A stretch of 64,000 nucleotides of DNA from an uncultured Candidatus Binatia bacterium (lineage in GTDB: Bacteria; Desulfobacterota; Binatia; UBA9968; JAJDTQ01). The stretch's first letter is position 1. Every line of letters starts with the position of its first letter. Shown here piece after piece: positions 1 through 39,512 of this stretch. The stretch is from NCBI GenBank assembly GCA_965214905.1, contig OZ243984.1, positions 3,963,802 to 4,027,801 of the forward strand, in the 5' to 3' direction. A program made the translations under genes and the position numbers. The notes under the pieces were generated by a model, which saw nothing but the letters and a program-made list of their open reading frames with translations, was not told where the DNA came from and did no database searches.

Positions 1-2162
1 AAGCGCGAGGTGTCGTGGCAGTCCAGGTACTTGACGATTTCGTTCCCCAACACCCTGGCGCTCTGGCTGCCCACCGTCGGCGCGGTGTCCGCCGCTTCGC
101 TTTCGCCAAGGGCGCGGGCCAGGATCGCCAGCGCCGCCTTCGGCTCCTTGTCCTTGTCGGGCACCATTCCCACTGCATGAAAGCCGAGGGTATCGGCGAA
201 GACGAACGCTCCGCCCTCCGGGTTCGGCAGGAAGGCGGGGAACAGGGCGCCGTCGAGGCCAGCGAACTCGTGACGGAGGTCCCGGGCCTTTTGCCCCTGC
301 TCGAAGGCGGTATGAAGAACGAGGTTGTCGTAGGCGGCCTGCCACGCCACCCGCAGGGGATGGGCGGGCAGGACGATGAGGCCGACGGTGCGCCCGGACA
401 GCGACTGCACTTCGACGGTATTCGCGAGGGCGAGTGCGGAGTTGCCCTTCTCCAACAGGGCGGCCCAGGCCCGCAGGTACTCCTGTACGACGCCGAAGGG
501 CGCAACCGTCTCGTCGTATACCTGGGCAACGCCGCCGCCGCCCGCGCAGAAGCCTTCGGCCATCCTGCGGCTGACCGCCGCCGCGCGCTTCCATGCGTCG
601 CCGTCACCGCGGTCGAACGGCTCGAACTCCGCGGCGCCGGCGCGCTCCCCCGAGCCCCGCACCTTGACCGTCCACCGCCCGATCTCGCCCTGTCTCTTGA
701 TCCATTGCTCTTCGACCTCGGCGATCAGCGCGGGCCGAAAGACCCGGAAGCTCTTGCGTCTTCCCTGTTCGAGCGGCGTTCGCAACAGGACGAAGCCCTT
801 GGAATCGACGGTGACCGAAGGGGCCGACGTCATCGTCGAGACGGCTTCACGGCTCCCCATCTCGGCGAGCCCCTCGCTGAACGTCCGAACCTTCGCGCCA
901 ACCCCGCTGATCTCCGGCTCCGGCGGCTCCCCGAAGCGGACGATGAACTCCTCGCTCTCCTGGGGTTCGATCGCGTCGTTGCCGACCACCTCGACCACCG
1001 CCTTGGCCGACAGCAGCGTGGTTTCGTCCAGCGACGAGAAGTCGTCGTTGCTGAATCGGCATTTCTCTCCGCCTTTCCGTGCGGAATGGGCAACCTCCCG
1101 AACCGCGAGTTCCTCCTCCATGTCGGTCCGGAGGGCGACGCGGTATTCGGCCGCATTCTTATCGAGGTCCACGGGGTCGGTCTTCCATCTGACCTCCAGG
1201 GTCGAAAAGCGGCCGCTCTGGTCCGCGTCCGGCCGCAGGACGAGAGCCGGCGGCTCTTCCGCATCCGCGCCTTCGATCAGCCCGGACCATCTGGCGATGG
1301 CGCCGTTCCGGTTTCGCCAGGAAATGAGCTCGATGTCCCGGATCGACTTCGCCGGGGGCTCGGTTCGAAGCGCGCCGATCCACAGGTCCTCGTGGCCCGC
1401 GAGATCCTCCAATGCGGCGCGTAGCGGCTTCGTATCCACGGAATGGAGGAAACGCTCCAGATCGCCGCTCTCCTGCCCCGAGTTCGGGTCCAGCCGTATG
1501 GACTCGATACGCGCGGCGGGCGCGAGACTGGCGCCGGCCGCGCCCAGCAACCGATCCGTGAACATCCGGGCAGTGTTCAAGCTGTCTGTGGGGTCCGAGT
1601 TCCCGGAATCGAGGACGGGCCAAAGGCCGAGCAGATGCAGATGTGCGCCCGGCGATCCGCCCCCTGATGCAGTCCGGCAAAGGAAGTCGAACTCCGCCCA
1701 TCGCGACACGGCGTAACCGCCGCTGTGTCCCCGCGCCTTCTTGACCGCCTGCTCCGCGTAGCGGCGAACGTCCGCGGAGTGCCGCCGGGTGATCTCGTGG
1801 CTCGTCAGACGTTGCGCTTCCCGGAACAAAGCGGCTTCAGCCACCTCGCGAACGGCGCTGTAGATGCCGTCCATGCCGGCGCCAGCGCGTTCGGTATCGA
1901 CCAGGAGCAGGACGGCATCGCGCTTGGCCTCGCGCATCTCCACGGCCCGGTCCGCGGTGACGGTCCGTAGCTCGTCGCGGTCCTCATCCGCAACCCGCAG
2001 AACCGTCCAGCCGGCGGGCGCAAAGGAGGCGTCGCTCGCAAGCGCTTTGACGACATCGGGGGTCAGGCAACGCGCGAAAGCCATTGCCCCGGTCCGGGGG
2101 TCGCCGAGCACGCGCTTGAACGCTGCCGCAAGCAACCGCCCGTGGAGATCGGTACACTTCAC
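1..2162 (-). CDS. Large hypothetical protein, N-terminal 720 aa only (3' end lies beyond the window); third gene of the NERD-kinase-ATPase operon; positional analogue of DptH
   Basis: Not in the supplied track because it has no stop inside the window. The minus-strand frame (coordinate = 2 mod 3) is open from GTG 2162..2160 down to position 3. That GTG lies 1 nt after the upstream TGA at 2166..2164; an alternative ATG is at 2084..2082. My hand translation reads VKCTDLHGRLLAAAFKRVLGDPRTGAMAFARCL...GLIVLPAHPLRVAWQAAYDNLVLHTAFEQG...ARVLGNEIVKYLDCHDTSR, with ordinary protein composition. The long + strand ORFs 15..1424 and 376..1716 over the same DNA are R/A/P/S-rich shadows. Confidence 0.7.
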   Translation of the reverse strand, partial: MKCTDLHGRLLAAAFKRVLGDPRTGAMAFARCLTPDVVKALASDASFAPAGWTVLRVADEDRDELRTVTADRAVEMREAKRDAVLLLVDTERAGAGMDGIYSAVREVAEAALFREAQRLTSHEITRRHSADVRRYAEQAVKKARGHSGGYAVSRWAEFDFLCRTASGGGSPGAHLHLLGLWPVLDSGNSDPTDSLNTARMFTDRLLGAAGASLAPAARIESIRLDPNSGQESGDLERFLHSVDTKPLRAALEDLAGHEDLWIGALRTEPPAKSIRDIELISWRNRNGAIARWSGLIEGADAEEPPALVLRPDADQSGRFSTLEVRWKTDPVDLDKNAAEYRVALRTDMEEELAVREVAHSARKGGEKCRFSNDDFSSLDETTLLSAKAVVEVVGNDAIEPQESEEFIVRFGEPPEPEISGVGAKVRTFSEGLAEMGSREAVSTMTSAPSVTVDSKGFVLLRTPLEQGRRKSFRVFRPALIAEVEEQWIKRQGEIGRWTVKVRGSGERAGAAEFEPFDRGDGDAWKRAAAVSRRMAEGFCAGGGGVAQVYDETVAPFGVVQEYLRAWAALLEKGNSALALANTVEVQSLSGRTVGLIVLPAHPLRVAWQAAYDNLVLHTAFEQGQKARDLRHEFAGLDGALFPAFLPNPEGGAFVFADTLGFHAVGMVPDKDKEPKAALAILARALGESEAADTAPTVGSQSARVLGNEIVKYLDCHDTSR

Positions 2163-2163
2163 G

Positions 2164-3969
2164 TCAGTGTTCCATCCGGGGCGAGAAGCGGGGCCGCAGC
2201 CGCTTCATCGCCTCGGCGTCGTTCACGCCGACGAGGAGCCCGAGATCCCGCAAGCGGCGTTCCAGAATCGCCCGATTCGATTGCAGAAGCTCGTTGGAGA
2301 TCGTCATGTGCGGGGGCGCCGCATCGATGTGAAATCCGTAGCGTTCCCGGATCGTGTCCAGGAACTCCCGCAAGGAAAGCCGTTTCACTCCCGGCTTGCT
2401 GGCGCGGCGAAGGAGGTGAAGGTGCACCAGGTAGTCCAAGACCGAGTCGGTGAGAACCAGTGACCGGACTTCCCGTTGCCTCCTTCCGCTCCCCGCCGTC
2501 TGCGTCCCTCGGGTGGTTCTTCGCTTGCGCGCCAGCCCGTTCGGGCGCCCGATATTCAGCGTCGAGTCGACCATGGGAATCGTATGGCCTCGTGCCTTTG
2601 TTCCCATCAGCAGCGTCAGGGCGGCTGCGAGACGCCGAATCGGATTGGGTTGACTCTGCTGGTTGCGCAACACGCTCGCCGCTTCCGGGAAGTCCTCGTC
2701 CAGAGCATTCGCGAGCTTTTCGCCGTGCTCATCCATCTGGCGGTGAATGTATGGCGCCTCGTCGTGGCGCTCATGAAGCAACTCGCCGAGCAGATTGATC
2801 CACTCCGTGGCGTACGGTCGGATGGAGTGTTTCTCTTTCTTGATCTTCCGATTGTCCCTCGCCGCATAGTCCAGCAGCCGCAGCATCATCAGGATCTCGG
2901 GGAGGCGCTCGATGCGGCGCATCAGGTCGCCCAGCGACTGCTCGGCCAGATCCCGTAGCTCGCGAACGACACCGTTGGAGCCATCCACGAAGATGCTCGC
3001 CGGCCGCTGGCGCTGTGGCTCGATGACGACCCCGGTCTCCGCCCATCCGAACAGGATCTCGACGACGCTGGTGAGAACCGCCGTCATGCCCGTCGCGACA
3101 CAGGATTCGAGCATGTCGACGAAGGCATGGCGCGGAACGCTCTCCCCATAGGACCGCACGAACCGGCGGATGTCCTCGGAGAACTCCCTTGCCGATTTCT
3201 CGGCAATCGGGCGCTGGTTCGAGATCTGCGCGCTTTCGTTACCCCGTATCTTGTCCGGCGCGGCACCCAGTTGTTGGCCCAGTCGGATCGTCAGGATCTG
3301 ATCGAGTCCGAGGCCTTTATTCTGTTCATCGAACTTGTCCGCCGCCAAGTCGGCGACGGGTCCCTTCCGTTCGACACCGTGGCTGAACGCGCGCAGCAAC
3401 AGGTTCTCTTCGTGGCCCTTGCCGATGGCGAACCAAGTGCGGTCCCCTTCGTTGTTCGGCTTCACGTGGTCGCCCTTCTGGCCCGCGAGCATCGCCACGA
3501 TCATCTCCGGCACGAAACGCAGATGTGTCGTACTCTCGGGAAGATCGATCCAGCTCGCCATGTAGTGGGCCGGCGCCACACGCTGGACCTGTCTATCCCG
3601 GCCGAGATCGTGCCTGGAGTTCTCAAGACAGAAGCAGAGCAGCAGGTCGCCGAGGATCGCTTGTTCCACAGCCTCATCGAAACCGTCGAGGTCGGGACGG
3701 GAAGCGAGTTTCTCCGCGATGCGTTCCACGGTTGCCGCCCGTCTTCGTTCCCGGAAGGTACCGCCGTTCGGAGCGAAGGTCTTGAGGAAATTGCCCCGGC
3801 CCCGGCGCTGTCCGAATCGAAACATGTAGAACACCGCGGGAAGGACCGCCGAAAGCTCGAACGTGTTGAACGAGACCGGCAAAACCTTGTCGTACTGCGC
3901 CGACCACAACTCGTTCGCCATGCGCCGCGACAGCACGTCCTGGACGATGGAACGGGCGCTACTTGCCAT
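2164..3969 (-). CDS. Hypothetical protein, 601 aa; middle gene of the operon (positional analogue of DptG; no motif recognised)
   Basis: Real part of ORF 2164..4248 starts at ATG 3969..3967 (MASSARSIVQDVLSRRMANELW...). This ATG overlaps the upstream stop by 11 nt (ATGGCAAGTAG), indicating translational coupling. Composition is protein-like throughout, and the 93 codons upstream of this ATG are S/R/T-rich junk. The C-terminus ...LSLREFLDTIRERYGFHIDAAPPHMTISNELLQSNRAILERRLRDLGLL looks like a helical/wHTH-type tail. Confidence 0.8.
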   Translation of the reverse strand: MASSARSIVQDVLSRRMANELWSAQYDKVLPVSFNTFELSAVLPAVFYMFRFGQRRGRGNFLKTFAPNGGTFRERRRAATVERIAEKLASRPDLDGFDEAVEQAILGDLLLCFCLENSRHDLGRDRQVQRVAPAHYMASWIDLPESTTHLRFVPEMIVAMLAGQKGDHVKPNNEGDRTWFAIGKGHEENLLLRAFSHGVERKGPVADLAADKFDEQNKGLGLDQILTIRLGQQLGAAPDKIRGNESAQISNQRPIAEKSAREFSEDIRRFVRSYGESVPRHAFVDMLESCVATGMTAVLTSVVEILFGWAETGVVIEPQRQRPASIFVDGSNGVVRELRDLAEQSLGDLMRRIERLPEILMMLRLLDYAARDNRKIKKEKHSIRPYATEWINLLGELLHERHDEAPYIHRQMDEHGEKLANALDEDFPEAASVLRNQQSQPNPIRRLAAALTLLMGTKARGHTIPMVDSTLNIGRPNGLARKRRTTRGTQTAGSGRRQREVRSLVLTDSVLDYLVHLHLLRRASKPGVKRLSLREFLDTIRERYGFHIDAAPPHMTISNELLQSNRAILERRLRDLGLLVGVNDAEAMKRLRPRFSPRMEH

Positions 3970-6900
3970 ACCGTTCCCCCGGCGGTTCGAGCGGAGCGAT
4001 GGACATGCGTTGCAGTGGGGCGGATCCCGAATCGTCGATTCCCACCGAGATCTCGAAGATCGCCTCCTCGCGTATGGGGTTCCAGGCGAACATCCGACGG
4101 TGGTCTTCCTGAACCAGTCTCTGCACGAAGATGGAGAGGTGCGCGAAGGTGTCGTCGGTCGCGATATCGCCCAACTGATAGCCGTCACTGAGGTCGAGGA
4201 GCAGGTGAAACAGCTCGGCGCCAAGACGCAGCCGCTCTTCGCGCCCATCGCGGTAGCGGTAGACCAGGAACGCTTGCCGATGGAGCCGGTCCAGCCCCTC
4301 CCCGCCGCACGTATCGACTTCGAGACGAAAATCGCAAACCGATTTCTCGACCCAGAACGCCGTCTCGGTCGGCGTTCGCGGGGTGATCTTCAGCGGCACG
4401 GCGCCGGGTCGATCCAGCGCCTTGGGCGGGAGGGTTTCGAGGCGGGAGATACCGGCGCAAAGGCGCTCGATCAGCTTGGCGCGTTTGTCAGGATCGTCGT
4501 CGATGGCAAGCGCGCGGAACTCGCGCAAGTGACGCCCTTGGGCCAGATCCAGCGCGAACGGGTCGCCGGTCCATCGTTCCATCTCGTCTTCCGGCCACTC
4601 GAACCAAGCCCGGCGGCGTGCTGCCTCAAGAGACAGCCCTTCATAGCGGGGAAGCCCGCCGTCGCCGTCGATGGACGGCGAGTACAGCAGACGCCGGTCG
4701 ATCTGCGGGTGCGCATCGAGAGCCGGGTCGAAATACACCATCTCCCGCAGCACTTCCCCTTGCCGTCCCGGCGACCGGGGCGCAAAGGCGCGCTCGGAGT
4801 AGGGCTGCGGCGCGCCGGAACCATCGTCGCTCCGGTGATAGTCGCGGCAGAAGTGCATACCGAACAGGATATAGACCAGTGCGCCGCGCAGTTCGCGGAT
4901 CGTGATGTGCGCTTCGCCTCGCAGGTGCACGGCCTGCAGTGCCTCGAACAGCCGCTGTCGGGCACGGCGGCGCACTGCCTCGTCCGCGAGTTCGCCGGGG
5001 CCGAACGTCCGCGCCGCTCGAACGACCTCGCAACGGTCTTGAGCCGAACACGTGCGACAGGGTGTCCATATGTTGGCGGCCCGCTCTCCGCCGTACAAGC
5101 TGTCGACCAGACGATCGAGAAAGCCGGTGTCGATGCGTCTCCTGTCCGCCGTGACGGCACCGACCAGCGAGCGCTGGTTCAGGTCGACGAACCGGATATG
5201 CGATCCGGTAGGCGGGGCTTGGCCCTCGAGAAAGTCGGAAAGGGCCCTCGTCAACGAGGTTTCGCCCCGGCGTTTCTCGATGTTTTCGATCCACTCCAAC
5301 AGACGGCCATCGTTGATCGCCAGCAGGTGGACGATATCCTCGCCCGGCCGGCCGCCCTGGAACGGGGCCAGGAATTCGTCCAGCAGATCGTCGGCGGAAC
5401 GGCCCTTCCAGGACGCGGAACCGTCGAGATTCATGCGTACGGTCAAGCCGTCGTCCAACCCTCCCTCAATGATGCGCGCCGCGGAAGTCCGGTCGCCCAA
5501 TCCCAGGCGTTTGGCAAGGTGTTGGAGGAGGGCGGTCTTGCCGTCGCCGGCATTGCCGCACAGGACCACGAGACGAACACGCCGTGCGACGATGTCGCGG
5601 TAGAGGGCTTGTTCCAGATCCGTTTCGACGTAGGTTCCGGCCGCGAACTCGCTGTCCAGCCCGCGCGTCTCGCGGTTGCCCCAGAGTGACCCGGGATAGG
5701 ATTGCAGCAGCGACTTCAGCCACTCCACTTCGTTCTCTTGCCGCTCGGCGCGTCCGTGCCCTGGAGGGGCCGATTCGGCATGTCCGACTTCAACGACTCC
5801 TTCCGCTTCGCTCGGTGCGATGTCTCCCGTCCGGCGTCCGGCGCGGTGAGCCGGACTCAAGACCGCCAGCGCGTCCGCCGCCGAGGCGATCCGCTTCTCC
5901 CGGACCGGGCTGGTGGCACGGTCCAGGAAAGCGGCCAGCACCGGATATTCCTCACGCTCCACCCCGTCCCAGTTCAACCCGCGCTCCTTGGCGTAGACGC
6001 CGTCGTCGTATCGAAACGGCTCCTTCTCGAACAGCGCATGGAAGAAGCTCGCGGCGAGCGCGTAGAAATCGTCGGACGGAGCGGCCTCCCGGCCTTCGAG
6101 ACAGGACGGCGAGCAGTAGGGAACCGTGCCCGGTGCAGCCATGGGTTCGCCGACCCTCCCCACGAAGTCGTAATCCGTCAGGACGAGGTCGTCTCCGGAA
6201 ACGATCAGGTTACGGGGGCTGACATCGCCATGCACCAAACCATTGCCGTGCAGGACGCCCATCGCGTTGCAGGCCGTGCGCAGCCATCGCACGGCCAACG
6301 CTTCGACCGATCCTTCCTGAAAGTCCTCGGCGAGGATCGGGAACACCCCCGAGTACTCGCTGAGCGGCTCGCCTTCGATCCACGTCATCAGAGCCAGGAA
6401 CTGGTTGTCGCGCCATTCCGGAGCCACTTCGAAGATCGTCGACAAGGCGGAGTGCCGGAGATGCGAATGCGCCAGCTCATAGGCGCGGAGGACCCGCCGG
6501 CCCGTCTCTTCATCGCGAGCGACCTTGGCGACGTAGGTGCCGAGGTCGCCCCCGGTCTCGCGATTGATTTTCACGACCTTGAAGGCGGTTCCCACCCCCC
6601 CCCCCCCCCCCCCCCCCCCGGAACCGAGGCGCGAGACGATGCGATAGTCCTGATCTCGGAAGCGCACAATCTGCTCTTCCGTCCAGAACCGCGCCGGCGG
6701 AGGCGGCGGTTCGGGCATCGGCTCGCCCAGCAGCTCGGACAGCGATGCCTCCATCTCCGCCAAGCTGCTCCGCGCTCCGGGCTGGTCCGCCATCCCCCGA
6801 TCCAGCTCCACCAGGACCTTGGCACTGTCCTCGTTCTGCCGATCCTTGAAGAGCACCGTCAGCGACGCGCAAAGCGAATAGACGTCGGACCGACGATCCG

Positions 6901-8032
6901 CGGCGGCTCGTCCCTGGACGCGAACCTCGGGAGAGACCGCAGCGTCCCGATCCCCTCCCGGTTCGGAGGAAGCCACGGAGACGTCCCCCGGAATCCGGGT
7001 GTAAGCGAAACCGGTCAGGATCGGCGAATTGTCATGTTTCACCAGGATCGTGTTCGGCGTCAGGTTTCGGTGAATCATGGGTTCGGTTTCCGTACTCGCC
7101 CCGTGGAGTTCGCGCAACGCTTGCACGGCGCCGCGGGCGAAACTCGAACGGGCTTTCGTATCCCACGATTCATCCGCGGCGCGCTCCGCGATGCTGGGCG
7201 CGGCGGGATCGGCCACGGTGAAGAACGCGATCTCGTTCGCATATCCCGGTGCTTCCTGGAACGAGTCCACGATGCGCGGCGCCCAACCGTGCCGTTGCAG
7301 CCGTTGCAAAGATTTCCACTCGCGTTCCGCCTTCTCACCGGCGTTCGGGCCATCGCTCGCCGACAGATCGTAAAGATGCAGGAGCACTCGATCCTGCCGG
7401 GAGGCGTGTTTCGCTTCGTAGATCCGATGGAATAGCTCCTCGGGCGGCGTGCGGAGCCGCAGATGCGAGTACCCGGCCAGTCGTTTCAACGCACCGTCCA
7501 GGGCAACGGCGCTCCTGGGTTCCAGGGAGCGTCTCGATGCCCTGATTTGCTGCAAGGACAGCACATTCGGTGAATCGAATCCCAACGCACCGCGCCAGGT
7601 GTTGAACGTATGGAACGAAACGCCGCGAACGGGCTCCCGTCGTTCGAGTCCCTTGACCTTGTCGGCCGTTTCGGTGACCAGAAACGCTCCGTCCACCCGC
7701 GGGAGATCGGGAATCTGCCGGCGCAGCGTCGTGCCGATCTTGCGCGCTTTGTTCGTCACGCGCTCGGCTTCCTGTTCTACGATGTCGGGATTTCGATTGA
7801 CCCATGCCGCGGTCCAGTGCTTGACCTCGATGACCCGAACCCCCGGCGGGCCGATGGCGACGATGTCGATCTCGTCGGATTGGAGACGATGCGTTGCGGA
7901 GAAAGTCAGATTCGTCAGCAGGTGCCACTCGTCATCGCCCGGAACGGAGATCAGGCGCGTCTTGAGCTGGGCGATGGCCTTGCGCTCGCTTTCGTTGACG
8001 GCTGGTCCACATGAAACAATACGTGCTTTCAC
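3959..8032 (-). CDS. 1357-aa multidomain protein: NERD nuclease-like domain + degenerate kinase-like domain + Ser/Thr-type kinase domain + P-loop NTPase (PglW-like N-terminal half, DptF-like C-terminal half)
   Basis: ORF 3959..8032 with a GTG start. N-terminus MKARIVSCGPAVNESERKAIAQLK...DEIDIVAIGPPGVRVIEVKHW matches the NERD pattern. The first kinase-like lobe has IHRNLTPNTILV and TGFAYT, so both the HRD Asp and the DFG Asp are replaced. The second lobe has G-loop LGSGGGGGGGGVGTAFKV, VAK lysine, VHGDVSPRNLIV and LTDYDF. After that come Walker A VVLCGNAGDGKTALL (nt 5538-5564) and HLLAINDGRLL. Cys cluster: CRTCSAQDRC. Confidence 0.9.
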   Translation of the reverse strand: MKARIVSCGPAVNESERKAIAQLKTRLISVPGDDEWHLLTNLTFSATHRLQSDEIDIVAIGPPGVRVIEVKHWTAAWVNRNPDIVEQEAERVTNKARKIGTTLRRQIPDLPRVDGAFLVTETADKVKGLERREPVRGVSFHTFNTWRGALGFDSPNVLSLQQIRASRRSLEPRSAVALDGALKRLAGYSHLRLRTPPEELFHRIYEAKHASRQDRVLLHLYDLSASDGPNAGEKAEREWKSLQRLQRHGWAPRIVDSFQEAPGYANEIAFFTVADPAAPSIAERAADESWDTKARSSFARGAVQALRELHGASTETEPMIHRNLTPNTILVKHDNSPILTGFAYTRIPGDVSVASSEPGGDRDAAVSPEVRVQGRAAADRRSDVYSLCASLTVLFKDRQNEDSAKVLVELDRGMADQPGARSSLAEMEASLSELLGEPMPEPPPPPARFWTEEQIVRFRDQDYRIVSRLGSGGGGGGGGVGTAFKVVKINRETGGDLGTYVAKVARDEETGRRVLRAYELAHSHLRHSALSTIFEVAPEWRDNQFLALMTWIEGEPLSEYSGVFPILAEDFQEGSVEALAVRWLRTACNAMGVLHGNGLVHGDVSPRNLIVSGDDLVLTDYDFVGRVGEPMAAPGTVPYCSPSCLEGREAAPSDDFYALAASFFHALFEKEPFRYDDGVYAKERGLNWDGVEREEYPVLAAFLDRATSPVREKRIASAADALAVLSPAHRAGRRTGDIAPSEAEGVVEVGHAESAPPGHGRAERQENEVEWLKSLLQSYPGSLWGNRETRGLDSEFAAGTYVETDLEQALYRDIVARRVRLVVLCGNAGDGKTALLQHLAKRLGLGDRTSAARIIEGGLDDGLTVRMNLDGSASWKGRSADDLLDEFLAPFQGGRPGEDIVHLLAINDGRLLEWIENIEKRRGETSLTRALSDFLEGQAPPTGSHIRFVDLNQRSLVGAVTADRRRIDTGFLDRLVDSLYGGERAANIWTPCRTCSAQDRCEVVRAARTFGPGELADEAVRRRARQRLFEALQAVHLRGEAHITIRELRGALVYILFGMHFCRDYHRSDDGSGAPQPYSERAFAPRSPGRQGEVLREMVYFDPALDAHPQIDRRLLYSPSIDGDGGLPRYEGLSLEAARRRAWFEWPEDEMERWTGDPFALDLAQGRHLREFRALAIDDDPDKRAKLIERLCAGISRLETLPPKALDRPGAVPLKITPRTPTETAFWVEKSVCDFRLEVDTCGGEGLDRLHRQAFLVYRYRDGREERLRLGAELFHLLLDLSDGYQLGDIATDDTFAHLSIFVQRLVQEDHRRMFAWNPIREEAIFEISVGIDDSGSAPLQRMSIAPLEPPGERYGK

Positions 8033-8090
8033 GATATGCTTACTATCATCACGATATGCTTACTATCATCACGATATGCTTACTATCAAG
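8031..8090. repeat. Three tandem 20-bp direct repeats (ACGATATGCTTACTATCATC; third copy ends AAG) abutting or overlapping the GTG start of the 1357-aa gene
   Basis: Read directly: 8031-8050, 8051-8070 and 8071-8090. AT-rich (35% GC) in a roughly 65% GC background. In gene orientation the unit reads GATGATAGTAAGCATATCGT and contains the -10-like TAGTAA. Confidence 0.95.
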
Positions 8091-8904
8091 ATGCAGGTGC
8101 GGGTGTCCACTCGAAGAAACTCGTTCCTCCTCTCGGCCGGAAACCAGCGGCTTGGCGCCGGCCAACCGTGCGACCTGCAACCACATCGTGCTGACGCTGA
8201 TCCTGCACCGTCGGCGGTGGGACAACGCGGCCGCAGCCCTGCGCTACTTTACCCTGCACCGGAAGGCTGCCTTGCACGCCGTGCTGGCGCCCGCTGAGGC
8301 TCATCGCCGGCCGCTCCCACGATCCGCTCCCGTGTCCGCTCTCGACCCCAGTTCGGCATCCTTGCGCTGGACTGAACTGGCGCGCCTCACCAACAGCCCT
8401 ATCCGGGCAATCAGCCCCGATCATGTTCTCTGCGCCGCCGCACGCTCCAAATCGTCCCACTTGTCCGTCATCGCGTCCGCCCAAGTCTCCCGACGACACC
8501 CCAGGTGCTGCTCCCGCAAAGGATCAACCGACCACTTCGACGGACAAGTTTAGAGCGTGGGATAGTCCTGATCAAAAATTTGTCTGCTATCGCCTTCCAT
8601 TGCGACTGCCAAGGGTGCCACCGACACCGAGCAGGAAGTGCTGGAATCCCTGGAGCGAAACTCTCCGGACGGCTGGCGGACGTGCACCGCGGCGCCTACC
8701 TCGGCTCTTCGCCGAAGCCCGGGTCGCGGCGGACCGGCTCGTGGAACTGAAAATGCGTCACATGAAACTCACAAGCCCCACGCTGCTTGCGCTGGAAGAG
8801 GTGAAGTCGTGGATCGAAGCGATCGAGCAGGAGTTGCCTGACCTGATGTTTTCTCAGGGAGGAAGAACTTTCCTTATCGGAAGGCGCCAAAACAGGAGAT
8901 TGTG

Positions 8905-9069
8905 ATGACTAGGCACTTGACGGCCGTAATCCAACGCGAGGGAGATGGTTACGTCGCGCTGTGTCCGGAACCGGATGTCGCCAGCCAAGGCGTTACCGTG
9001 GCCGAAGCGCGCGGCAACCTGATGGAAGCGTTGGAGTTGTTCCTTGAAACGGCGTCCGACCCGGAGTAG
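8905..9069 (+). CDS. hicB: HicB-family (UPF0150-type) antitoxin, 54 aa, no adjacent HicA
   Basis: Below the 60-aa cutoff of the track. AGGAGA RBS 6 nt upstream of ATG 8905. Translation is MTRHLTAVIQREGDGYVALCPEPDVASQGVTVAEARGNLMEALELFLETASDPE*. It fits the short HicB pattern (...dGgyvA.cPe...sqG.T.eEA..Nl.EAlel.le). Confidence 0.65.
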   Translation: MTRHLTAVIQREGDGYVALCPEPDVASQGVTVAEARGNLMEALELFLETASDPE

Positions 9070-9088
9070 ACAGGATTGACGTACAGTG

Positions 9089-9226
9089 ATGCATGGCGCG
9101 AAGTGGAAGAAGCAAGCGCGTGTCGTGTATCAGTGCCTCTATCGCGTCGTAGGGTGTCCAAAGTACCGCCTGCGAATACTGAAGGGTGCGGTGGCGAAGA
9201 ACCCACATCCGGGACCGGAAGTGTGA
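9089..9226 (+). pseudogene. Remnant of an IS200/IS605-family Y1 transposase (TnpA) N-terminus
   Basis: 45-codon ORF MHGAKWKKQARVVYQCLYRVVGCPKYRLRILKGAVAKNPHPGPEV*. The segment CLYRVVGCPKYRLRIL aligns with the conserved first strand of IS200 TnpA (CKYHIVFAPKYRRQAF in Salmonella IS200, from memory). There is no intact HUH motif or catalytic Tyr downstream; the next frame has only a vague ...[11 protein letters not shown]. Confidence 0.4.
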
Positions 9227-9409
9227 TTTCGGCGGTGATCCGGAGGCCGGGATACAATCACACGCTGGCGTTGCGAATCGACGGCCCCGGAGCTTCCAGG
9301 CCGCGGCGTTACAGAGCCGCGCACCGGTTCGGAGCCAACCACAAACGGCTATCATGAAAGCGGATCGGCGAGCGGGCGGTTCCCATCACCAAACCGGGAG
9401 AAGCGGCGC

Positions 9410-10992
<1,583 letters not shown>

Positions 10993-10996
<4 letters not shown>

Positions 10997-11412
10997 AGCT
11001 CGACTACTCGGCCTTGGAAGATGCGGTCGCTCAGTTGCAGAGGAGCTTCGACTATCTCCACGGCGACCTCGCCCGCACGGATTCCGGCCTGCGGGAGCAG
11101 TTCCGAGCCGCCACCATACAGGCGTTCGAGTTCACCTACGGGCTGGCGGTCAAGATGATCCAGAGGCAACTGGCCCAGGTTGCCGCCAATCCCGATGCCC
11201 TGCGCGAGATGGACTTCGCCGACCGGATGCGCGATGCGGCCGATGCCGGGATCGTTCGTGAGGCCCTGTCCTACATCCGTTACCGGGAGCTGCGGAACAA
11301 GACCTCCCACACCTACGACGCGGATAGGGCGGAGGAGACAGTCTCGGTGATTGACGAGTTCCTGCGCGACATGCGTCTCCTCCTGCAAGAGCTTCGGAGG
11401 CGCAACCCGTGA
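10993..11412 (+). CDS. HEPN-domain protein, HI0074-type nucleotidyltransferase substrate-binding family (toxin-like partner of MNT)
   Basis: Real part of ORF 10588..11412 begins at ATG 10993, giving an ATGA overlap with the hsdM stop. Sequence: [22 protein letters not shown]...[16 protein letters not shown]...[19 protein letters not shown] matches the HEPN Rx4H motif. 139 aa. Confidence 0.8.
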
Positions 11413-12863
11413 AACCGATTGACATCCGCCCAGCAGATCTGGATACGGTTCGGCGCATTCTGAGCGAGCACGTGCCTACCGTGGAGGTACGCGCCTTCGG
11501 ATCGCGGGTGGCCTGGAACGCGCGGGAAACCTCCGATCTCGACTTGGCGCTGATGACGGACGAGCCTTTGAGTGTCGACCGCACGGCAAGGCTGCGAGCT
11601 GCCTTCACGGACTCCGATCTGCCCTTTCGAGTGGACATCGTGGACTGGGCCAGCACGTCCGAGAGCTTCCGGCGGGTCGTCGAAGCGGAGTATGTCGTGT
11701 TACAACCGCCATTCCCCCGGAACCTGGATGCTGAGGGTGGCTGGACATCGATCAATCTCGGTCGGACGTGCATCAAGATCGACAGCGGGGCGACGCCGTG
11801 CGGCGGAAAAGACGTTTGCCAGCCGAGCGGACCGTACGCATTGATCCGAAGCCAGAACGTGCTCAAGGGCGGTTTCCGTCACGAAGATTTGGCGTACATC
11901 GGTGAGCATCACGCTTCCGAACTGTCGAGCAGGGATGTGCTGGACGGTGACGTTCTTCTCAACATCACTGGGGATTCCGTCGCACGAGCGTGTCAGGTCG
12001 ATCCGCATGTCCGTGAACAGCGGACCATCACGCACATCCTCGGCACGCTGGACGACAAGATCGAGATGAACCGGCGGATGAACGCGACGCTGGAGGCGAT
12101 GGCGCGGGCGTTGTTCAAGTCCTGGTTCGTCGATTTCGACCCCGTGCGGGCCAAGATGGAGGACCGCGACACCGGGCTGCCGAAAGAGATTGCCGACCTG
12201 TTCCCCGACCAGTTGGTGGAGACCGCGATCGGCCGGGTACCGGAGGGGTGGGCGGTAGTGTCGTTGACGGAGTTGATGAACGTCAACCCGAAACGCTCGC
12301 TATTGCGAGGGCAAGTCGCACCGTATCTCGACATGGCGAATATGCCGACGCGCGGGCACGTGCCGGATTCCATTGTTGATCGACCTGCCGGATCGGGAAT
12401 GCGATTCACGAATGGCGATACTCTCGTCGCTCGAATCACGCCGTGCCTTGAGAACGGCAAGACGGCCTATGTGGACTTCTTGCGTGCGTCTGAGGTCGGG
12501 TGGGGTTCAACAGAGTATATTGTCCTGAAGCCCAAACACCCTCTTCCCGACGAGTTCGCTTACTGCGTGGCTCGCAGCGCCGGATTCCGGGAATTCGCGA
12601 TCCGGAACATGAGCGGCACTCGCGGACGCCAGCGGGTACCGGCGGCAGCACTGGACGGCTTCGCGATGAGTGCACCCCCGGCGCCAGTAGCCGTGCGATT
12701 CGGGCACATCGCCCGTTCACTGTTCGGCCGCGCCAGATGGGCGGCGCTCGAATCCCGCGCGCTCGCCCACATTCGAGACGCGCTGCTGCCGAAGCTGGTG
12801 TCCGGCGAACTAAGGATAGGAAATGACACGCGAGCCATTGGGAGAACTGCTGGTGTCCGCTGA
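11409..12863 (+). CDS. hsdS: Fusion protein: minimal nucleotidyltransferase (MNT, HI0073-like) N-terminal domain + type I R-M specificity subunit HsdS with a shortened first target-recognition domain
   Basis: 484 aa, with a GTGA overlap with the HEPN stop. Residues 1 to about 98 carry the MNT motif FGSRVAWNARETSDLDLAL (GS-x10-DxD). From about residue 108 the sequence is HsdS-like. TRD1 reads GWTSINLG...DGDVLLNITGDSVARACQVDPHV and runs directly into the central conserved region REQRTITHILGTLDDKIEMNRRMNATLEAMARALFKSWFVDFDPV. A full-length TRD2 and the distal conserved region LPKLVSGELRI follow. Confidence 0.85.
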   Translation: MKPIDIRPADLDTVRRILSEHVPTVEVRAFGSRVAWNARETSDLDLALMTDEPLSVDRTARLRAAFTDSDLPFRVDIVDWASTSESFRRVVEAEYVVLQPPFPRNLDAEGGWTSINLGRTCIKIDSGATPCGGKDVCQPSGPYALIRSQNVLKGGFRHEDLAYIGEHHASELSSRDVLDGDVLLNITGDSVARACQVDPHVREQRTITHILGTLDDKIEMNRRMNATLEAMARALFKSWFVDFDPVRAKMEDRDTGLPKEIADLFPDQLVETAIGRVPEGWAVVSLTELMNVNPKRSLLRGQVAPYLDMANMPTRGHVPDSIVDRPAGSGMRFTNGDTLVARITPCLENGKTAYVDFLRASEVGWGSTEYIVLKPKHPLPDEFAYCVARSAGFREFAIRNMSGTRGRQRVPAAALDGFAMSAPPAPVAVRFGHIARSLFGRARWAALESRALAHIRDALLPKLVSGELRIGNDTRAIGRTAGVR

Positions 12864-17722: not shown

Positions 17723-17880
17723 GGAGTGTACCGCCTCACGAACAGATCCGTGAACTTGCCCGCTCGGTGTTCCGCCGGCTGCGATGCACCGAATGAACGG
17801 AGGCAGGAACGGATGCGTCTGCAAGAAAGTACGAGATGGCGAGACCTCCTCTCTCCTCGGAGAGCCTGGTTGCTTTCCGT

Positions 17881-18047
17881 CCCCAGGTAGGTCTCCTGGC
17901 TCATGGGCCGGCCGCTTCGACCACCTTGCCGCCTTCCCATCCTCGGTTCGAGGACAGTGGCATCAGGGCAAGGGTTCCCATTTACAGTGGCGGGACCGCA
18001 CCGGATTTTCACCGGTTTCCCTGTTATCCCGTTAGGGACCTGAGGAC
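17881..18047 (-). promoter_or_regulatory. Cobalamin (B12) riboswitch aptamer upstream of tonB and the TonB-dependent receptor
   Basis: The minus-strand RNA reads GUCCUCAGGUCCCUAACGGGAUAACAGGGAAACCGGUGAAAAUCCGGUGCGGUCCCGCCACUGUAAAUGGGAACCCUUGCCCUGAUGCCACUGUCCUCGAACCGAGGAUGGGAAGGCGGCAAGG...CAUGAGCCAGGAGACCUACCUGGGG. All canonical blocks are present and in order: AGGGAA-GGUG-AA-CC, CCCGC-ACUGU, GCCACUG...GGGAAGGC, and the B12 box AGCCAGGAGACCU. Confidence 0.9.
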
Positions 18048-18105
18048 CGGGCGGCCCGGAAGGCCGCCCAATGCCAGTGGGTTGTATCCGTACCCGGAGG
18101 TCCTG

Positions 18106-23910: not shown

Positions 23911-25086
23911 GTGTTTCACGTAGACTTGTCGCCGTTCGGCGTGGACGTCGAGCGGCTCAGGACCGACCGTCTGAGCCGCCTGCGGAGCATCATGCGCACC
24001 CGCGACCTGAGCGCGCTGCTACTGACGGACCCGTTGAACATCCGCTACGCCACCAACACGGTGTTGTGGCTCAATCTGCGGGCCACGGGGGTGCAGCGCT
24101 TCGCGCTCGTGCCGGCCGACGGCGAGCCGGTGGTGTATGAGCGGCTGTTCGGCAGCGAGCGCGCCGCCGGGCTCAAGAAGGCGGGTCCGGTCCAGGGTTT
24201 CGGCGCCTACATGTTCGGCATGCGGCCGCCGGTGGCCACCGAGCACTTCGTCGGCCTCGTGGCGGACGGGCTGGCGCAGATGGGTTTGACAGGAGAGCGG
24301 GTCGGGGTCGACGCGCTGTGTCTTACCGCGGTGGAGCTCCTGCGGAACAAGGGTTTTGCGGTACTGGACGGACTCCCGGCGCTGGGTGAGGCGCGTCAGG
24401 TCAAGACGCCGGACGAGGTGCAGCTCATCCGCTGGACCAGCCGGGCCAAGGAAGGCGGCTATGATCTGGTGCGGGAAGCCGTCCGCAAGCCGCCGGTGCT
24501 GGAGGAACGCCTGAGCCGCATGATGCTCGAATACCTGCTGGAGCAGGGCTTCGAGGCCGGCAGCGAGTTCATCTCGATCTTCGATTCCTCACAGATGGCG
24601 ATTCGGCCCCATCGCGAGCCCATGGGCATGGACCTGGTGATGACCGAGGGGGACCTGGTCATCTGCGACGCCACCGTGTCCGGTCCCGGCGGCTACTACA
24701 GCGACTTCGCCCGGACGTTCTGCCACGGCGCCCCCTCCAGGGCGGACCGGGACCGCTACGCCGAGGCATACGCCACGCTGCAGGAGGCCATCGGCCATAT
24801 CCGTCCCGGTCCGTGCACTGCGTTGTTCGAGCGCTTCGGCCAGACCTCGACGGCTCGACTCCCGGGTCTGGACGGCTTTCACGGCGTCGGCATGTGCATC
24901 TACGAGGCGCCCTGGCTCCGGGGCTTCGACCCGCCGGAGTACCAAGTCTCCCTGGAAGAGAACATGATCATCGCCCTGGAGATCAACCACCACCCGGTGA
25001 AGCTCGAACACCTGCTCCGGGTCACCGGCGACGGCGCCGAGATCCTCTCCACCTATCCCATGGAACCGGAGCTGGTTCCGGCCTAG
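23911..25086 (+). CDS. M24-family metallopeptidase fold protein (Xaa-Pro peptidase/creatinase-like)
   Basis: 391 aa; GTG start 6 nt after a GAGGAA RBS. Creatinase/prolidase-type N-domain (LRSIMRTRDLSALLLTDPLNIRYATN). Pita-bread domain with DATVSGPGGYYSDFARTF, FHGVGMCIYEAP and IIALEI. Confidence 0.75.
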   Translation: MFHVDLSPFGVDVERLRTDRLSRLRSIMRTRDLSALLLTDPLNIRYATNTVLWLNLRATGVQRFALVPADGEPVVYERLFGSERAAGLKKAGPVQGFGAYMFGMRPPVATEHFVGLVADGLAQMGLTGERVGVDALCLTAVELLRNKGFAVLDGLPALGEARQVKTPDEVQLIRWTSRAKEGGYDLVREAVRKPPVLEERLSRMMLEYLLEQGFEAGSEFISIFDSSQMAIRPHREPMGMDLVMTEGDLVICDATVSGPGGYYSDFARTFCHGAPSRADRDRYAEAYATLQEAIGHIRPGPCTALFERFGQTSTARLPGLDGFHGVGMCIYEAPWLRGFDPPEYQVSLEENMIIALEINHHPVKLEHLLRVTGDGAEILSTYPMEPELVPA

Positions 25087-25808
25087 GCGAGCATCTTCTC
25101 CACGAAGAATTCGGCAGCTCTGTAGGAGCTGCGTACCATGGGCCCGGCGGCGACGCAGCGGAAGCCGAGTTGCCTGCCCTGTTCCTCGTAGTCCCGGAAA
25201 CGCTGGACTGTTTCGATGTTCTGGCCGATGACCTGTGGTGCGGCCTCCACGACCTTCGCGAGTGCGCGGATGTCGCCGCGGAAGTCCGGGATCAGCGTCT
25301 CGATGATCAGCTCCGGGCAGCGGCGCCGGGTCTCACGGATGGTATCGGCGAAGACCCCGGCGCCGCCGTCCTCCAGGTCGTCGCGGTCCACGGAGGTGAT
25401 GACGACGTAGCGGAGTTCCATCCGAGCCAGGGCTTCCGCCACGCGTCGGGGCTCGTCCCGGTCCACGGGAATGCCGGCCTTGGCGGTCTTGACGGCGCAG
25501 AACCGGCACCCGCGGGTGCAGACGTCTCCGAGGATCATGATGGTGGCGGTGCCGGATTGCCAGCACTCGGCCAGATTGGGGCAGCGCGCCTCCTCGCACA
25601 CCGTGTGCAGCTTCAACCCGCGGAAGTTGTCCTTGAGGCGGTTGTAGCCGGTCCCGGAAGGCAGTCGGACCTTCAGCCACGGCGGCTTGTGTCCCGCTTG
25701 CGGGCGTGCGTCGAACATCATTTTCCAGACTATCCCACGCCTCGAGAAAAGGCCACCCATCGCCGCCTCCCCTGATGGACCTGTAGTCCCGTTGACAACG
25801 AGACTCAT
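25083..25808 (-). pseudogene. lipA: Lipoyl synthase (lipA) with an in-frame internal deletion of about 80 aa
   Basis: Both cluster motifs are present (CEEARCPNLAECW; CTRGCRFC), as are VVITSVDRDDLEDGGA, IETLIPDFRG and the C-terminal GPMVRSSYRA. However, NIETVQRFRD joins directly to YEEQGRQLGF (junction about 25190/25191). The segment that in E. coli LipA carries TKSGLMVGLGE and GQYLQPS is missing. Confidence 0.7.
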
Positions 25809-25915
25809 TTCGAGATAGGGAGAAGCTCATGTCACGTTACGGGAAAGCTATTCACGTTACGCGAGAGGCGATGTTCTACGCAAGAGATAATCCCTTGCGT
25901 AGAAACCAAAGTCAT

Positions 25916-25938
25916 CCCCCCCCCCCCCCCCCCCCCCC
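25916..25938. repeat. 23-nt poly-C (poly-G on minus strand) homopolymer in the lipA / giant-adhesin intergenic region
   Basis: Read directly: C run 25916-25938. About 450 nt of strongly C-rich, G-poor + strand sequence follows (to about 26390), up to the adhesin RBS. Confidence 0.95.
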
Positions 25939-26422
25939 ACGGCGGGGGCTCATCAGCCGCCCCATAACGCCCACCCCCCCTTCGCCCCTCCTTCACGCAC
26001 ACCCCACCATCAACGCCCCTCAACACATTCTCCCCCGACCCCTGCTCCACCATCACAGATCTATCCGACTGACCCGGCCCGCTTCCCACCGCTACCAGTG
26101 TTGCGGGTAACACGGCTCCCGCTCCTGTCGCTCCCGTCCCCGCTGTTGTTCCTACTGTCGGCGCAACACGCGCGGACGCCACACTTGTCCCTCTCGAACC
26201 GGAGCCTGCTTGACCGCCATCCCCGCACTACGACGCTGAAACTCACCCCATTCAATGGGACCCTGACCACGGCACCAGCAGCAACCTTCATGGACTGCAC
26301 GACGGCTGACGCCACCGCCTGTGCCAAAATCCTCTCGTTTTGCCGCCATCCGAAGGTCAACCCTTTCGGTTCCCTGTCCACCAGCGGGTAGCAGCACGAG
26401 AAGGGCGCGAAGGAGAGTCGTC

Positions 26423-32400: not shown

Positions 32401-35400
32401 CGTGACGCTGACGATCACGGACGACGACGCGCCGGAGTTGGCGATCGGCGACGCGAGCGTGACCGAGGGCGACTTGGGCGAGAGCGTGACGCTGGAGTTC
32501 ACGGTGACGCTGGACCCGGCGGCGACGCTGCCGGTGACGGTGGAGTGGGCGACGTCCGACGGGACGGCGGAAGCCGGGACGGACTACACGGCGGTGACGA
32601 ACGAAACCCTGACCTTCGAGCCTGGCCAAGACAGCAAGACCGTCACGGTGACGGTGACGGGCGACGACGCGGACGAGCCGAACGAGACGTTGACGGTGAC
32701 GGTGACGAACGAGTCGGGCGCAACGATCACGGACGCCACGGGGACGGGGACGATCACGGACGACGACGGGCCGGCGGCGGTGACGCTGGTTCTGACGCCG
32801 GCCTCGATCGGCGAGAACGGCGGGAAGAGCACGGTGACGGCAACCCTGGACCGTCCTTCGAGCGCGGCGACGACGGTGAGGGTATCGGCGGCGCCGGTAT
32901 CACCGGCGGTGGCGAACGACTACAGGCTGGTCGGGAGCCAGTTGACGATCGCGGCCAACTCCCTGACGAGCACGGGCGAGGTGACGATCACGGCCGTGGA
33001 CAACGAGGTGGACGCTCTGGACAAGGAAGTGACGGTGTCGGCCACGGCGGAGAACACGCAGGGGATCACAGCCCCGCCGAACGTGACGCTGACGATCACG
33101 GACGACGACGCGCCGGAGTTGGCGATCGGCGACGCGAGCGTGACCGAGGGCGACTTGGGCGAGAGCGTGACGCTGGAGTTCACGGTGACGCTGGACCCGG
33201 CGGCGACGCTGCCGGTGACGGTGGAGTGGGCGACGTCCGACGGGACGGCGGAAGCCGGGACGGACTACACGGCGGTGACGAACGAAACCCTGACCTTCGA
33301 GCCTGGCCAAGACAGCAAGACCGTCACGGTGACGGTGACGGGCGACGACGCGGACGAGCCGAACGAGACGTTGACGGTGACGGTGACGAACGAGTCGGGC
33401 GCAACGATCACGGACGCCACGGGGACGGGGACGATCACGGACGACGACGGGCCGGCGGCGGTGACGCTGGTTCTGACGCCGGCCTCGATCGGCGAGAACG
33501 GCGGGAAGAGCACGGTGACGGCAACCCTGGACCGTCCTTCGAGCGCGGCGACGACGGTGAGGGTATCGGCGGCGCCGGTATCACCGGCGGTGGCGAACGA
33601 CTACAGGCTGGTCGGGAGCCAGTTGACGATCGCGGCCAACTCCCTGACGAGCACGGGCGAGGTGACGATCACGGCCGTGGACAACGAGGTGGACGCTCTG
33701 GACAAGGAAGTGACGGTGTCGGCCACGGCGGAGAACACGCAGGGGATCACAGCCCCGCCGAACGTGACGCTGACGATCACGGACGACGACGCGCCGGAGT
33801 TGGCGATCGGCGACGCGAGCGTGACCGAGGGCGACTTGGGCGAGAGCGCGACGCTGGAGTTCACGGTGACGCTGGACCCGGCGGCGACGCTGCCGGTGAC
33901 GGTGGAGTGGGCGACGTCCGACGGGACGGCGGAAGCCGGGACGGACTACACGGCGGTGACGAACGAAACCCTGACCTTCGAGCCCGGCCAAGACAGCAAG
34001 ACCGTCACGGTGACGGTGACGGGCGACGACGCGGACGAGCCGAACGAGACGTTGACGGTGACGCTGACGAACGAGTCGGGCGCAACGATCACGGACGCCA
34101 CGGGGACGGGGACGATCACGGACGACGACGGGCCGGCGGCGGTGACGCTGGTTCTGACGCCGGCCTCGATCGGCGAGAACGGCGGGAAGAGCACGGTGAC
34201 GGCAACCCTGGACCGTCCTTCGAGCGCGGCGACGACGGTGAGGGTATCGGCGGCGCCGGTATCACCGGCGGTGGCGAACGACTACAGGCTGGTCGGGAGC
34301 CAGTTGACGATCGCGGCCAACTCCCTGACGAGCACGGGCGAGGTGACGATCACGGCCGTGGACAACGAGGTGGACGCTCTGGACAAGGAAGTGACGGTGT
34401 CGGCCACGGCGGAGAACACGCAGGGGATCACAGCCCCGCCGAACGTGACGCTGACGATCACGGACGACGACGCGCCGGAGTTGGCGATCGGCGACGCGAG
34501 CGTGACCGAGGGCGACTTGGGCGAGAGCGCGACGCTGGAGTTCACGGTGACGCTGGACCCGGCGGCGACGCTGCCGGTGACGGTGGAGTGGGCGACGTCC
34601 GACGGGACGGCGGAAGCCGGGACGGACTACACGGCGGTGACGAACGAAACCCTGACCTTCGAGCCCGGCCAAGACAGCAAGACCGTCACGGTGACGGTGA
34701 CGGGCGACGACGCGGACGAGCCGAACGAGACGTTGACGGTGACGCTGACGAACGTGTCGGGCGGGGGCGCGACCATCGAGGATGCCACCGGGACCGGGAC
34801 GATCACGGACGACGACCTTCCGGTGGTGACGGTGGCCGGCGGGGGGATGTGACGGAAGGTGCGGACGCGGAGTTCACGCTGACGCGGTCGAACACGTACA
34901 CGACGGGGACGCTAGCGGTCACGTTCACGGTGACGGACAGCGGCGAGGTAGTGAGGGGCGCGGCGCCGACGCGAGCGATCTTCCCGCCGAACGACTCCAA
35001 GGTGACGGTGGGGGTTGGGACGGATGACGACGAGGTGGATGAACGGGACGCCGTGCTGACGCTGGAATTGGATGACGGCGATGCCTACGACCTGGGTGCG
35101 GCGTCCACAGCCACGGTGACGGTGCGGGACAATGACGACGACAGGCCGATCGAGGGGCCGATATCGCTGACCCTGAACCCCTTGGCCAAGCTGGTTCGCT
35201 ACGGGGTGGGGGAGACGGTGGAGTTGGTTCTGTCGGCGGCCACAGGTGGCACCGGGCCTTATAGGTATAAACTGGAGCCGTTGCCGTCGGGGCTGTCGTT
35301 TGAGGCGGAGACGCGAGTTTTGTCGGGGACGCCGGACACCCCTGGGCTCACGGAGTCGACCTATGAGGTCAGAGACTCGGCGGGCTCGCCGGTCACGGGC

Positions 35401-39420: not shown

Positions 39421-39441
39421 GCAGTCGGACCGGAACCGCTG

Positions 39442-39512
39442 CCAGGAGCCTGCGCCGGAGGCATTCACGGCTGCAAGTCCGCTGCCGCGAATTCCTCGGC
39501 GCAGGCTCCTGG
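39442..39512. terminator. Long hairpin: perfect 16-bp inverted repeat CCAGGAGCCTGCGCCG / CGGCGCAGGCTCCTGG with a 39-nt loop, between the convergent adhesin and hydrolase genes
   Basis: Arms at 39442-39457 and 39497-39512, read directly. There is no U tract, so assignment as a terminator is tentative. Confidence 0.3.

Follow-up and report, generated by a model that had tools for sequence, protein, structure and literature searches.

Within the 64,000-nucleotide (nt) stretch of an uncultured Candidatus Binatia bacterium analyzed here (assembly GCA_965214905.1, contig OZ243984.1, positions 3,963,802 to 4,027,801; hereafter the window), the left end is occupied by three minus-strand genes that, judged by their domain content, are predicted to form an anti-phage module of the DndFGH type, MAD6/7/8-like and related to the methylation-associated defense system (MADS). 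The first of these, gene 1, encodes a kinase-fused DndF-type protein, and its open reading frame (ORF) passes through an unbroken run of 25 G residues (G25) placed in the codons for the ATP-binding glycine loop of a serine/threonine kinase domain. Elsewhere in the window are a second long run, of 23 C residues (C23), and a frame change at a short G run in a giant adhesin-like gene. The positions of these features are collected in Table 1.

Table 1. Features of the operon, the homopolymers and the accessory insertion in the window (aa, amino acids)
Feature	Position	Strand	Description
G25 homopolymer	6595..6619	- (coding strand; C25 on + strand)	codons 472-479 (GGG x8) and first base of codon 480
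Active-type Ser/Thr kinase domain	5843..6652	-	~aa 461-730; Pfam, motif alignment, AlphaFold2, Foldseek
Gene 1, kinase-fused DndF-type protein	3959..8032	-	1357 aa, GTG start
NERD nuclease-related domain	7790..7996	-	aa 13-81, PF08378, E 1.2e-8
DndF/SspF-like P-loop NTPase core	4856..5629	-	aa 802-1059, PADLOC SspF E 2.4e-16
Gene 2, MAD7/SspG/DndG-like	2164..3969	-	601 aa, ATG start
Gene 3, DndH/mad8-like	1..2162	-	first ~720 codons, cut by window edge; GTG start
Tandem repeat	8029..8088	-	three perfect copies of 20-bp unit (TGATAGTAAGCATATCGTGA); last copy holds gene 1 GTG start
C23 homopolymer	25916-25938	+	non-coding; ~160 bp inside left end of 13.8-kb insertion
13.8-kb insertion	25758-39597		carries giant Calx-beta/Ig adhesin-like gene; absent from close relatives
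G6 run	34841..34846	+	frame change in giant adhesin-like gene

Gene 1 is built, in order, of a NERD domain, an inactive kinase-like region, an active Hanks-type kinase, a DndF/SspF-like P-loop core with the Walker A motif GNAGDGKT, and a C-terminal region; weak Pfam matches to NACHT and AAA_16 occur at aa 808-862. A DndF variant in which NERD and an inactive and an active serine/threonine/tyrosine kinase precede the P-loop core has been described by Rakesh, Aravind and Krishnan, and DndFGH systems are often decoupled from any modification module (PMC10853773; PMC12839542). Gene 1 also matches PADLOC mad6 (E 3e-16) and, over aa 204-561, the MADS kinase MAD6 (E 8e-45, under the curated cut-off). 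Gene 2 matches NCBIfam MAD7 over its full length (E 8e-45) as well as PADLOC mad7 and SspG, and its ortholog is matched by Pfam MAD7. The visible part of gene 3 shares 91% identity over 720 codons with a 1658-aa ortholog, and it is the C terminus of that ortholog, beyond the part held in the window, that carries the DndH, mad8 and HerA/FtsK ATPase matches. Two defining elements of a DndFGH-type module are present in that the DndF/SspF core of gene 1 stands behind NERD and tandem kinases and is followed by a MAD7/SspG/DndG homolog. Scores against the curated MADS models fall well under their cut-offs (153 bits for gene 1 vs 460 for MAD6; 154 bits for gene 2 vs 410 for MAD7), which marks the module as a distant relative of MADS and not an equivalog. 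MADS itself is an eight-gene operon that includes the MAD2 methyltransferase. No methyltransferase lies beside the three-gene module at the orthologous loci, and in two chromosomes from related metagenome-assembled genomes (MAGs) the three genes stand alone between lolA and mgsA/serS.

The initial annotation, made from the letters of the window, had labeled gene 1 PglW-like. This label captures the N-terminal order of NERD, pseudokinase and kinase, and fails for the C-terminal half, which is DndF/SspF-like where that of PglW consists of winged helix-turn-helix and inactive STAND modules (PMC12839542), and for the MAD7/DndG- and DndH-like neighbors. PglW was rejected on scores (33 bits against the NCBIfam PglW cut-off of 990, with PADLOC PglW covering only aa 4-83 and both models confined to the NERD region), and a bacteriophage exclusion (BREX) type 2 neighborhood was rejected because the neighbors are MAD7-like and DndH-like genes and not pglX, pglZ, brxC/pglY, brxD or brxHI.

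The three genes are tightly packed. The ATG of gene 2 lies within gene 1 (11-nt overlap) and the GTG of gene 3 starts 1 nt past the TGA of gene 2, a layout that suits translational coupling; the initial annotation had already called the downstream genes coupled. No stops or frameshifts occur in the 1357, 601 and 720 visible codons, and the ratios of nonsynonymous to synonymous substitution rates (dN/dS) against the closest ortholog are 0.29, 0.27 and 0.38 for genes 1, 2 and 3, similar to those of other pairs. Long-term pseudogenization is not supported by values of about 0.3.

The tract begins at gene nucleotide 1414, in phase 0 of codon 472, and on the plus strand is bordered by A at 6594 and G at 6620. 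Read in the coding sense it gives GGG eight times and then the first G of GTG, encoding LGSGGGGGGGGVGTAFKV in the translated context ...YRIVSRLGSGGGGGGGGVGTAFKVV..., and the ORF remains open from end to end despite it. Both the length of the run and the intact frame agree exactly with what the initial annotation reported. Among all G/C runs in the window, 408 have a length of 4, 115 of 5, 13 of 6 and 5 of 7; none has a length between 8 and 22, and the next are the single run of 23 (C23) and the single run of 25. Extrapolating the decay of these counts, the expected number of 25-nt runs is ~1e-12, which rules out chance as the origin of G25. For comparison, the longest G/C run in 195 kb of related long-read MAG loci is 7.

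Several lines of evidence place the tract in a catalytic motif. The Pfam Pkinase match spans aa 476-677 of gene 1, and the kinase motifs include the beta3 lysine (YVAKV), HGDVSPRN aligned to HRDVKPxN, and DYD aligned to the DFG of mycobacterial PknA/PknB. An AlphaFold2 model of aa 440-790, built on an alignment of 35 homologs (mean predicted local distance difference test score, pLDDT, 84.9; predicted template modeling score 0.78), has beta1 at aa 461-471, a loop at aa 472-480 with pLDDT <50, and beta2 at aa 481-489; its top Foldseek matches are PknG and PknB, both with probability 1.00. The hallmarks of a Hanks-type kinase (the fold, the beta3 lysine, the HxD...N loop and a DFG-like motif) are thus all found in gene 1. 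Because the loop at aa 472-480 joins beta1 and beta2 in the model, the eight glycines sit at the tip of the ATP-binding glycine-rich hairpin, and the Pfam match, the modeled beta1-loop-beta2 unit and the Foldseek matches concur with the placement first proposed from reading the sequence. The loop itself is not of canonical length (GxGxxG in a tight beta1-beta2 hairpin): it is six glycines longer than in 119 of 119 listed homologs. The GSGGGG of the expanded loop still fits GxGxxG. Since loop length is constant across the family and the extra residues are modeled as disordered, the in-frame allele probably encodes a weakened kinase, and the present "ON" frame, with its six additional loop residues, is probably not the wild-type ON state. 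Kinase activity proved essential for defense in the one related system examined, as shown by the K677A substitution in PglW (PMC4365076), and deletion of mad6 abolishes MADS defense (bioRxiv 10.1101/2023.03.30.534895).

The initial annotation had also suggested that orthologs be compared for the presence of the tract, and this comparison confines it to one genome. A search for the gene 1 family returned 1050 matches, of which the best 120, at 62-100% identity, were listed and 119 homologs compared. All 119 carry the loop motif LG[SA]G[GSA]xG, nearly always as LGSGGVG, with no variation in length; four more members of the two closest clusters have the same glycine loop length and no G tract, and seven orthologous DNA loci lack the tract, with G runs at the site of <=5. 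Even the nearest relatives among the matches listed (<=90% identity) have no tract at all, and the protein cluster to which gene 1 of the window belongs has a single member. Gapped patterns across G25 and C23 gave zero matches in a metagenome collection, and a plasmid collection gave no match for the locus. Conservation of the tract in orthologs is ruled out by GSGGVG-type loops and G runs of <=5 throughout, and with no homolog carrying the tract or a change in loop length, it is therefore not a conserved regulatory feature. Where the closest orthologs read GGC GGG GTG, the window reads GGG eight times and then GTG, with perfectly collinear flanks, so that the allele amounts to an expansion of GGC GGG G by 18 nt and six glycines. 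This is the signature expected of a lineage-specific expansion by replication slippage once a C-to-G change had given G7, and collinear flanks at a site that was already G-rich fit slippage and not a chimeric join.

What slippage would do to the protein was simulated in silico for tract lengths from G19 to G31. Every length that departs from 25 by other than a multiple of three yields a product of 485-508 aa, which keeps NERD and the pseudokinase and loses the kinase and the DndF core; in-frame lengths change only the number of glycines. Both outcomes had been foreseen in the initial annotation, which held that a slip of one nucleotide would truncate the protein ahead of its kinase and ATPase modules and that steps of three would alter the length of the G-loop. 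The locus has two properties of a contingency locus, a homopolymer of at least about 8 nt inside an ORF and, in silico, the loss of full-length product upon every change that is not a multiple of three. Under the mechanism that we propose, slippage in the two glycine codons of the GxGxxG loop (GGC GGG G) would have grown the tract by 18 nt to G25; a G:C run of this length would not be copied faithfully, and a cell population would come to hold a spectrum of lengths. In out-of-frame cells translation would end at 485-508 aa, with loss of the kinase and the DndF core, and the coupled genes for the DndG-like and DndH-like proteins would probably be expressed less. In-frame cells would still make the whole protein, but its glycine loop would vary in length and differ from the native one, and its kinase would probably be weakened. 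The locus would then act on a costly defense module as an off-switch or attenuator that is both stochastic and reversible.

The start region of gene 1 has also been remodeled. Upstream of the gene the orthologs have unrelated DNA, a Shine-Dalgarno-like AAGGTG motif and an ATG start, and in the window this position is taken by the low-GC 20-bp repeat array, whose copies create sigma70-like hexamer pairs (TTGATA-16-GATAGT) and yield two 7-codon mini-ORFs chained by GTGA overlaps. A change in the copy number of the array could alter expression of the operon. Other perfect short tandem duplications are found at 40955-40992 (19 bp x2), 51810-51872 (24 bp x2.6) and 56544-56575 (16 bp x2); these and the 20-bp triplication suggest that the genome readily undergoes slippage or duplication.

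The spacer beyond the array (8100-9400) holds a HicB-like antitoxin ORF (plus strand, ~8900-9070), what looks like a piece of an IS200-type transposase gene, and an ORF that may be HEPN/DUF86-like, candidates recognized by reading the sequence that resemble the mobile-element debris typical of a defense island. It is followed on the plus strand (9410-12863) by a type I hsdM gene (528 aa), a HepT-like (HI0074) gene and a single ORF in which an MntA-like nucleotidyltransferase is joined to an HsdS-like half. There is no hsdR near the hsdM/MntA-HsdS pair, and adenine deaminase comes next; this group appears to be an orphan pair of modification and specificity genes with an embedded type VII toxin-antitoxin pair, beside the DndFGH-like operon. 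The hsdM and hsdS genes are divergent from the operon, with toxin-antitoxin and insertion sequence (IS) debris between, and a MADS-like partnership of the operon with these neighboring methylation genes is possible. In the related MAG OZ243976, the kinase-DndF ortholog at locus L005 (10001-12830) matches residues 1-858 only and its ORF ends at 943 codons, an independent disruption within the same gene family.

The second long run, C23, lies between lipA (start ~25720, minus strand) and the giant adhesin-like gene (start ~26504-26615). It is preceded by a repeat of ~20-23 bp, present in 2.3 copies (25818-25866), and by a hairpin of 15 nt (25874-25904). A coding role for C23 was ruled out, with no signal of G+C content at third codon positions across 25750-26050, and no consensus match to a promoter or terminator was found around it. 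Scans for RNA elements and tRNAs found none near G25 or C23; in the window they gave only a tRNA-Leu at 58458 and a cobalamin riboswitch (17869-18058, minus strand, 113 bits) upstream of a TonB-dependent receptor and an ABC/FecCD/periplasmic-binding cluster, which is ordinary regulation of B12 uptake. The insertion that harbors C23 has no terminal repeats that we could find. Two relatives (L010 and L012), at 85-94% nucleotide identity in the flanks, have lipA within ~50-160 bp of a 431-aa gene, and in a third (L011) this site, which looks like an insertion hotspot, is occupied by an AAA_15/DUF2813 gene pair. The lipA gene (lipoyl synthase; 25083-25808, minus strand) encodes 241 aa vs 296-315 aa in relatives, with ~250 bp missing in frame from its radical-SAM core, and its product is, by sequence, probably non-functional.

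The giant gene of the insertion, composed of Calx-beta, He_PIG and Ig repeats, is split at the G6 run into two overlapping ORFs (26321-34852 and 29821-39420). With G7 in place of G6 it would read as a single ORF of 4305 aa (26504-39420) with a signal-peptide-like N terminus; the frameshift could be a phase-OFF state, a pseudogene or a consensus error. Between 29695 and 34763 the gene contains a 681-bp repeat (two Calx-beta units) in 7.5 copies, which are 100% identical to one another over long stretches; this implies recent expansion or homogenization, and long-read assembly.

Phase-variable defense genes are well known, and the closest parallel is the Pgl system of Streptomyces coelicolor (BREX type 2), in which phase variation is attributed to a G tract in pglX, a precedent that the initial annotation named correctly (PMC4365076). 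As that tract expands and contracts, phage resistance is lost and regained at 1e-2 to 1e-4 (PMC4365076). In both cases a defense gene carries a poly-G run within its coding sequence, and Pgl likewise has a NERD/pseudokinase/kinase protein, PglW, whose kinase activity is needed for defense (PMC4365076). They differ in that the Pgl tract lies in a methyltransferase gene and its switching has been shown experimentally, whereas the tract described here lies in the catalytic glycine loop of a kinase, is known from sequence alone and is found in one genome only; further, this system is of the DndFGH type, with no PglX, PglZ or BrxC homolog among the genes scanned around the operon. With the extended-DndF DndFGH, SspFGH and MADS MAD6-8 systems the operon shares the domain order of gene 1, the F-G-H gene order and the frequent occurrence of the module alone, without a phosphorothioation module (PMC10853773; PMC12839542; bioRxiv 10.1101/2023.03.30.534895). 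The third gene of those systems ends in a HerA/FtsK-type ATPase, as does the ortholog of gene 3. A literature search found no report of a homopolymer switch in DndFGH, SspFGH or MADS systems.

In phase-variable restriction-modification, a simple-sequence tract in a defense gene gives stochastic ON/OFF expression (PMC8713573; bioRxiv 10.64898/2026.01.10.698759). The likeness to such genes (mod, hsdS and type IIG genes of Campylobacter, Neisseria and Helicobacter) is again that the tract lies inside a defense gene. Restriction-modification tracts are usually 8-15 nt long, recur across strains with differing lengths and sit in length-tolerant regions, whereas the present tract is 25 nt long, occurs in one genome and lies inside a catalytic motif. 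Very long runs inside ORFs make the copying of both DNA and RNA imprecise, and some in-frame product is made whatever the DNA length. In symbiont genomes such homopolymers are buffered by transcriptional slippage, and the known cases involve poly(A)/poly(T) in insect endosymbionts with AT-rich genomes, in contrast to a poly(G) run in a 66% G+C genome of 4.8 Mb. Phase-variable defense genes are thus already known from Pgl and restriction-modification; what is unusual here is how long the tract is, where it lies within a catalytic motif, and the kind of system that carries it.

We see a roughly even chance that G25 is a real, lineage-specific and hypermutable slippage tract that serves as a de facto stochastic off-switch or attenuator of the DndFGH-type operon. 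In favor of this are the condition of the operon, which is otherwise alive (no stops or frameshifts, and the dN/dS values given above), and the presence in the same 64 kb of two further G/C-run anomalies, C23 and G6/G7, both at an accessory surface-protein gene; contingency tracts classically occur in genes for defense and for adhesins. Several observations weigh against it. The tract is absent from the 119 listed homologs, the four additional cluster members and the seven DNA loci, leaving a single genome, in a window that has no run lengths of 8-22; a catalytic loop of constant length in the family is an odd site for a selected switch; and an in-frame state has a one-in-three chance of occurring without selection. 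Known G:C contingency tracts are usually 8-15 nt, far shorter than 25 nt, and at the latter length RNA-polymerase slippage is expected, which would blur a clean ON/OFF state and therefore points to a dimmer rather than a clean binary switch. The sequence shows the tract, its position, its restriction to this genome, the outcomes of frameshifts and the layout of the operon. The reality of the tract, its slippage, its polar effect on the downstream genes, an impairment of the kinase and any benefit to fitness are inferences; the polarity on genes 2 and 3 is deduced from their overlapping stop and start codons. Of the phase switch envisaged in the initial annotation, the tract in the G-loop codons, the open frame and the truncation upon slippage stand, while the tract is not conserved and its ON frame carries six extra residues. 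Nothing supports an evolved, conserved contingency locus.

It is unlikely, although deserving of serious weight, that the tract is real and yet a plain lesion, in which the six added glycines have already killed the kinase, the operon is in early decay and slippage proceeds without any functional ON state; perhaps loss of the kinase was even selected to disarm a toxic, horizontally acquired module. The constancy of loop length in the 119 listed homologs and four cluster members, together with the modeled disordered excursion of the inserted residues at the tip of the ATP-binding hairpin, is what such a lesion would look like, and the start of gene 1 has been remodeled as well (GTG for ATG, loss of AAGGTG, the 20-bp triplication). 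Decay does occur in the family, as at L005, where the ORF is open for 943 codons and homology ends at residue 858, and in the window, which has the ~250-bp lipA deletion, the frameshifted giant gene, and IS and toxin-antitoxin debris beside the operon. However, the ~8 kb of visible operon contain no other disabling mutation and dN/dS is ~0.3, and therefore any inactivation must be very recent; moreover, residual activity is conceivable for a GSGGGG loop that fits GxGxxG, and contraction to shorter in-frame lengths is mechanistically possible.

We hold it to be rather improbable that the tract is an artifact of assembly or consensus, with a true run that is short (~7 nt) or whose length was badly misestimated from one or a few aberrant long reads or when a heterogeneous region with compressed homopolymers was polished to a consensus. 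The tract is known from a single genome, run lengths jump from 7 to 23 with nothing between, and the near-equal C23 and a frameshift of +/-1 at G6 in the same window could share a technical cause. The contigs of the relatives bear names that resemble those given by metaMDBG or hifiasm-meta. In metaMDBG, homopolymers are compressed and the bases are later restored from the reads through partial order alignment polishing (PMC11392814). The printed tract length would then be no better than the consensus of what may be a mixed population. Against an artifact, 195 kb of the same kind of assembly contain no run >7, which argues that this type of pipeline does not commonly create such tracts, and the flanks of the tract are exactly collinear with the orthologs. 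Accurate long reads usually err in homopolymers by +/-1-2 nt, far less than the 18-nt excess seen here. Other genes of the window match their families at full length (for example, an M24 peptidase of 391 aa, like its homologs), so the assembly is not generally indel-ridden.

A broader proposal, which we consider quite doubtful, is that the 23-25-nt G:C tracts constitute a genome-wide contingency system that jointly switches the DndFGH-type operon and the 4305-aa adhesin-like protein, with three-way control of the kinase (off by frameshift, or with loop length tuning its output). If true, this would be the first phase-variable system of the DndFGH/MADS type, and its switch would have originated in glycine codons that belong to a catalytic motif.

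Should the tract prove to be an artifact, it would be a useful reminder that long homopolymers call for caution when metagenomes are assembled from long reads. If it is real, it carries a caveat for the annotation of MAGs, in which genes may be called intact or broken from the consensus of a mixed population, and it flags an uncultivated lineage with unusually long G:C tracts at defense and adhesin genes. It would also mean that such a tract can arise from the GGN-GGN codons in the glycine loop of a kinase. Modules of the DndFGH/MADS type are large and probably costly, and they may be toxic to the cell itself; a real tract would show that simple-sequence slippage can toggle this type of defense, as it does restriction-modification and Pgl.

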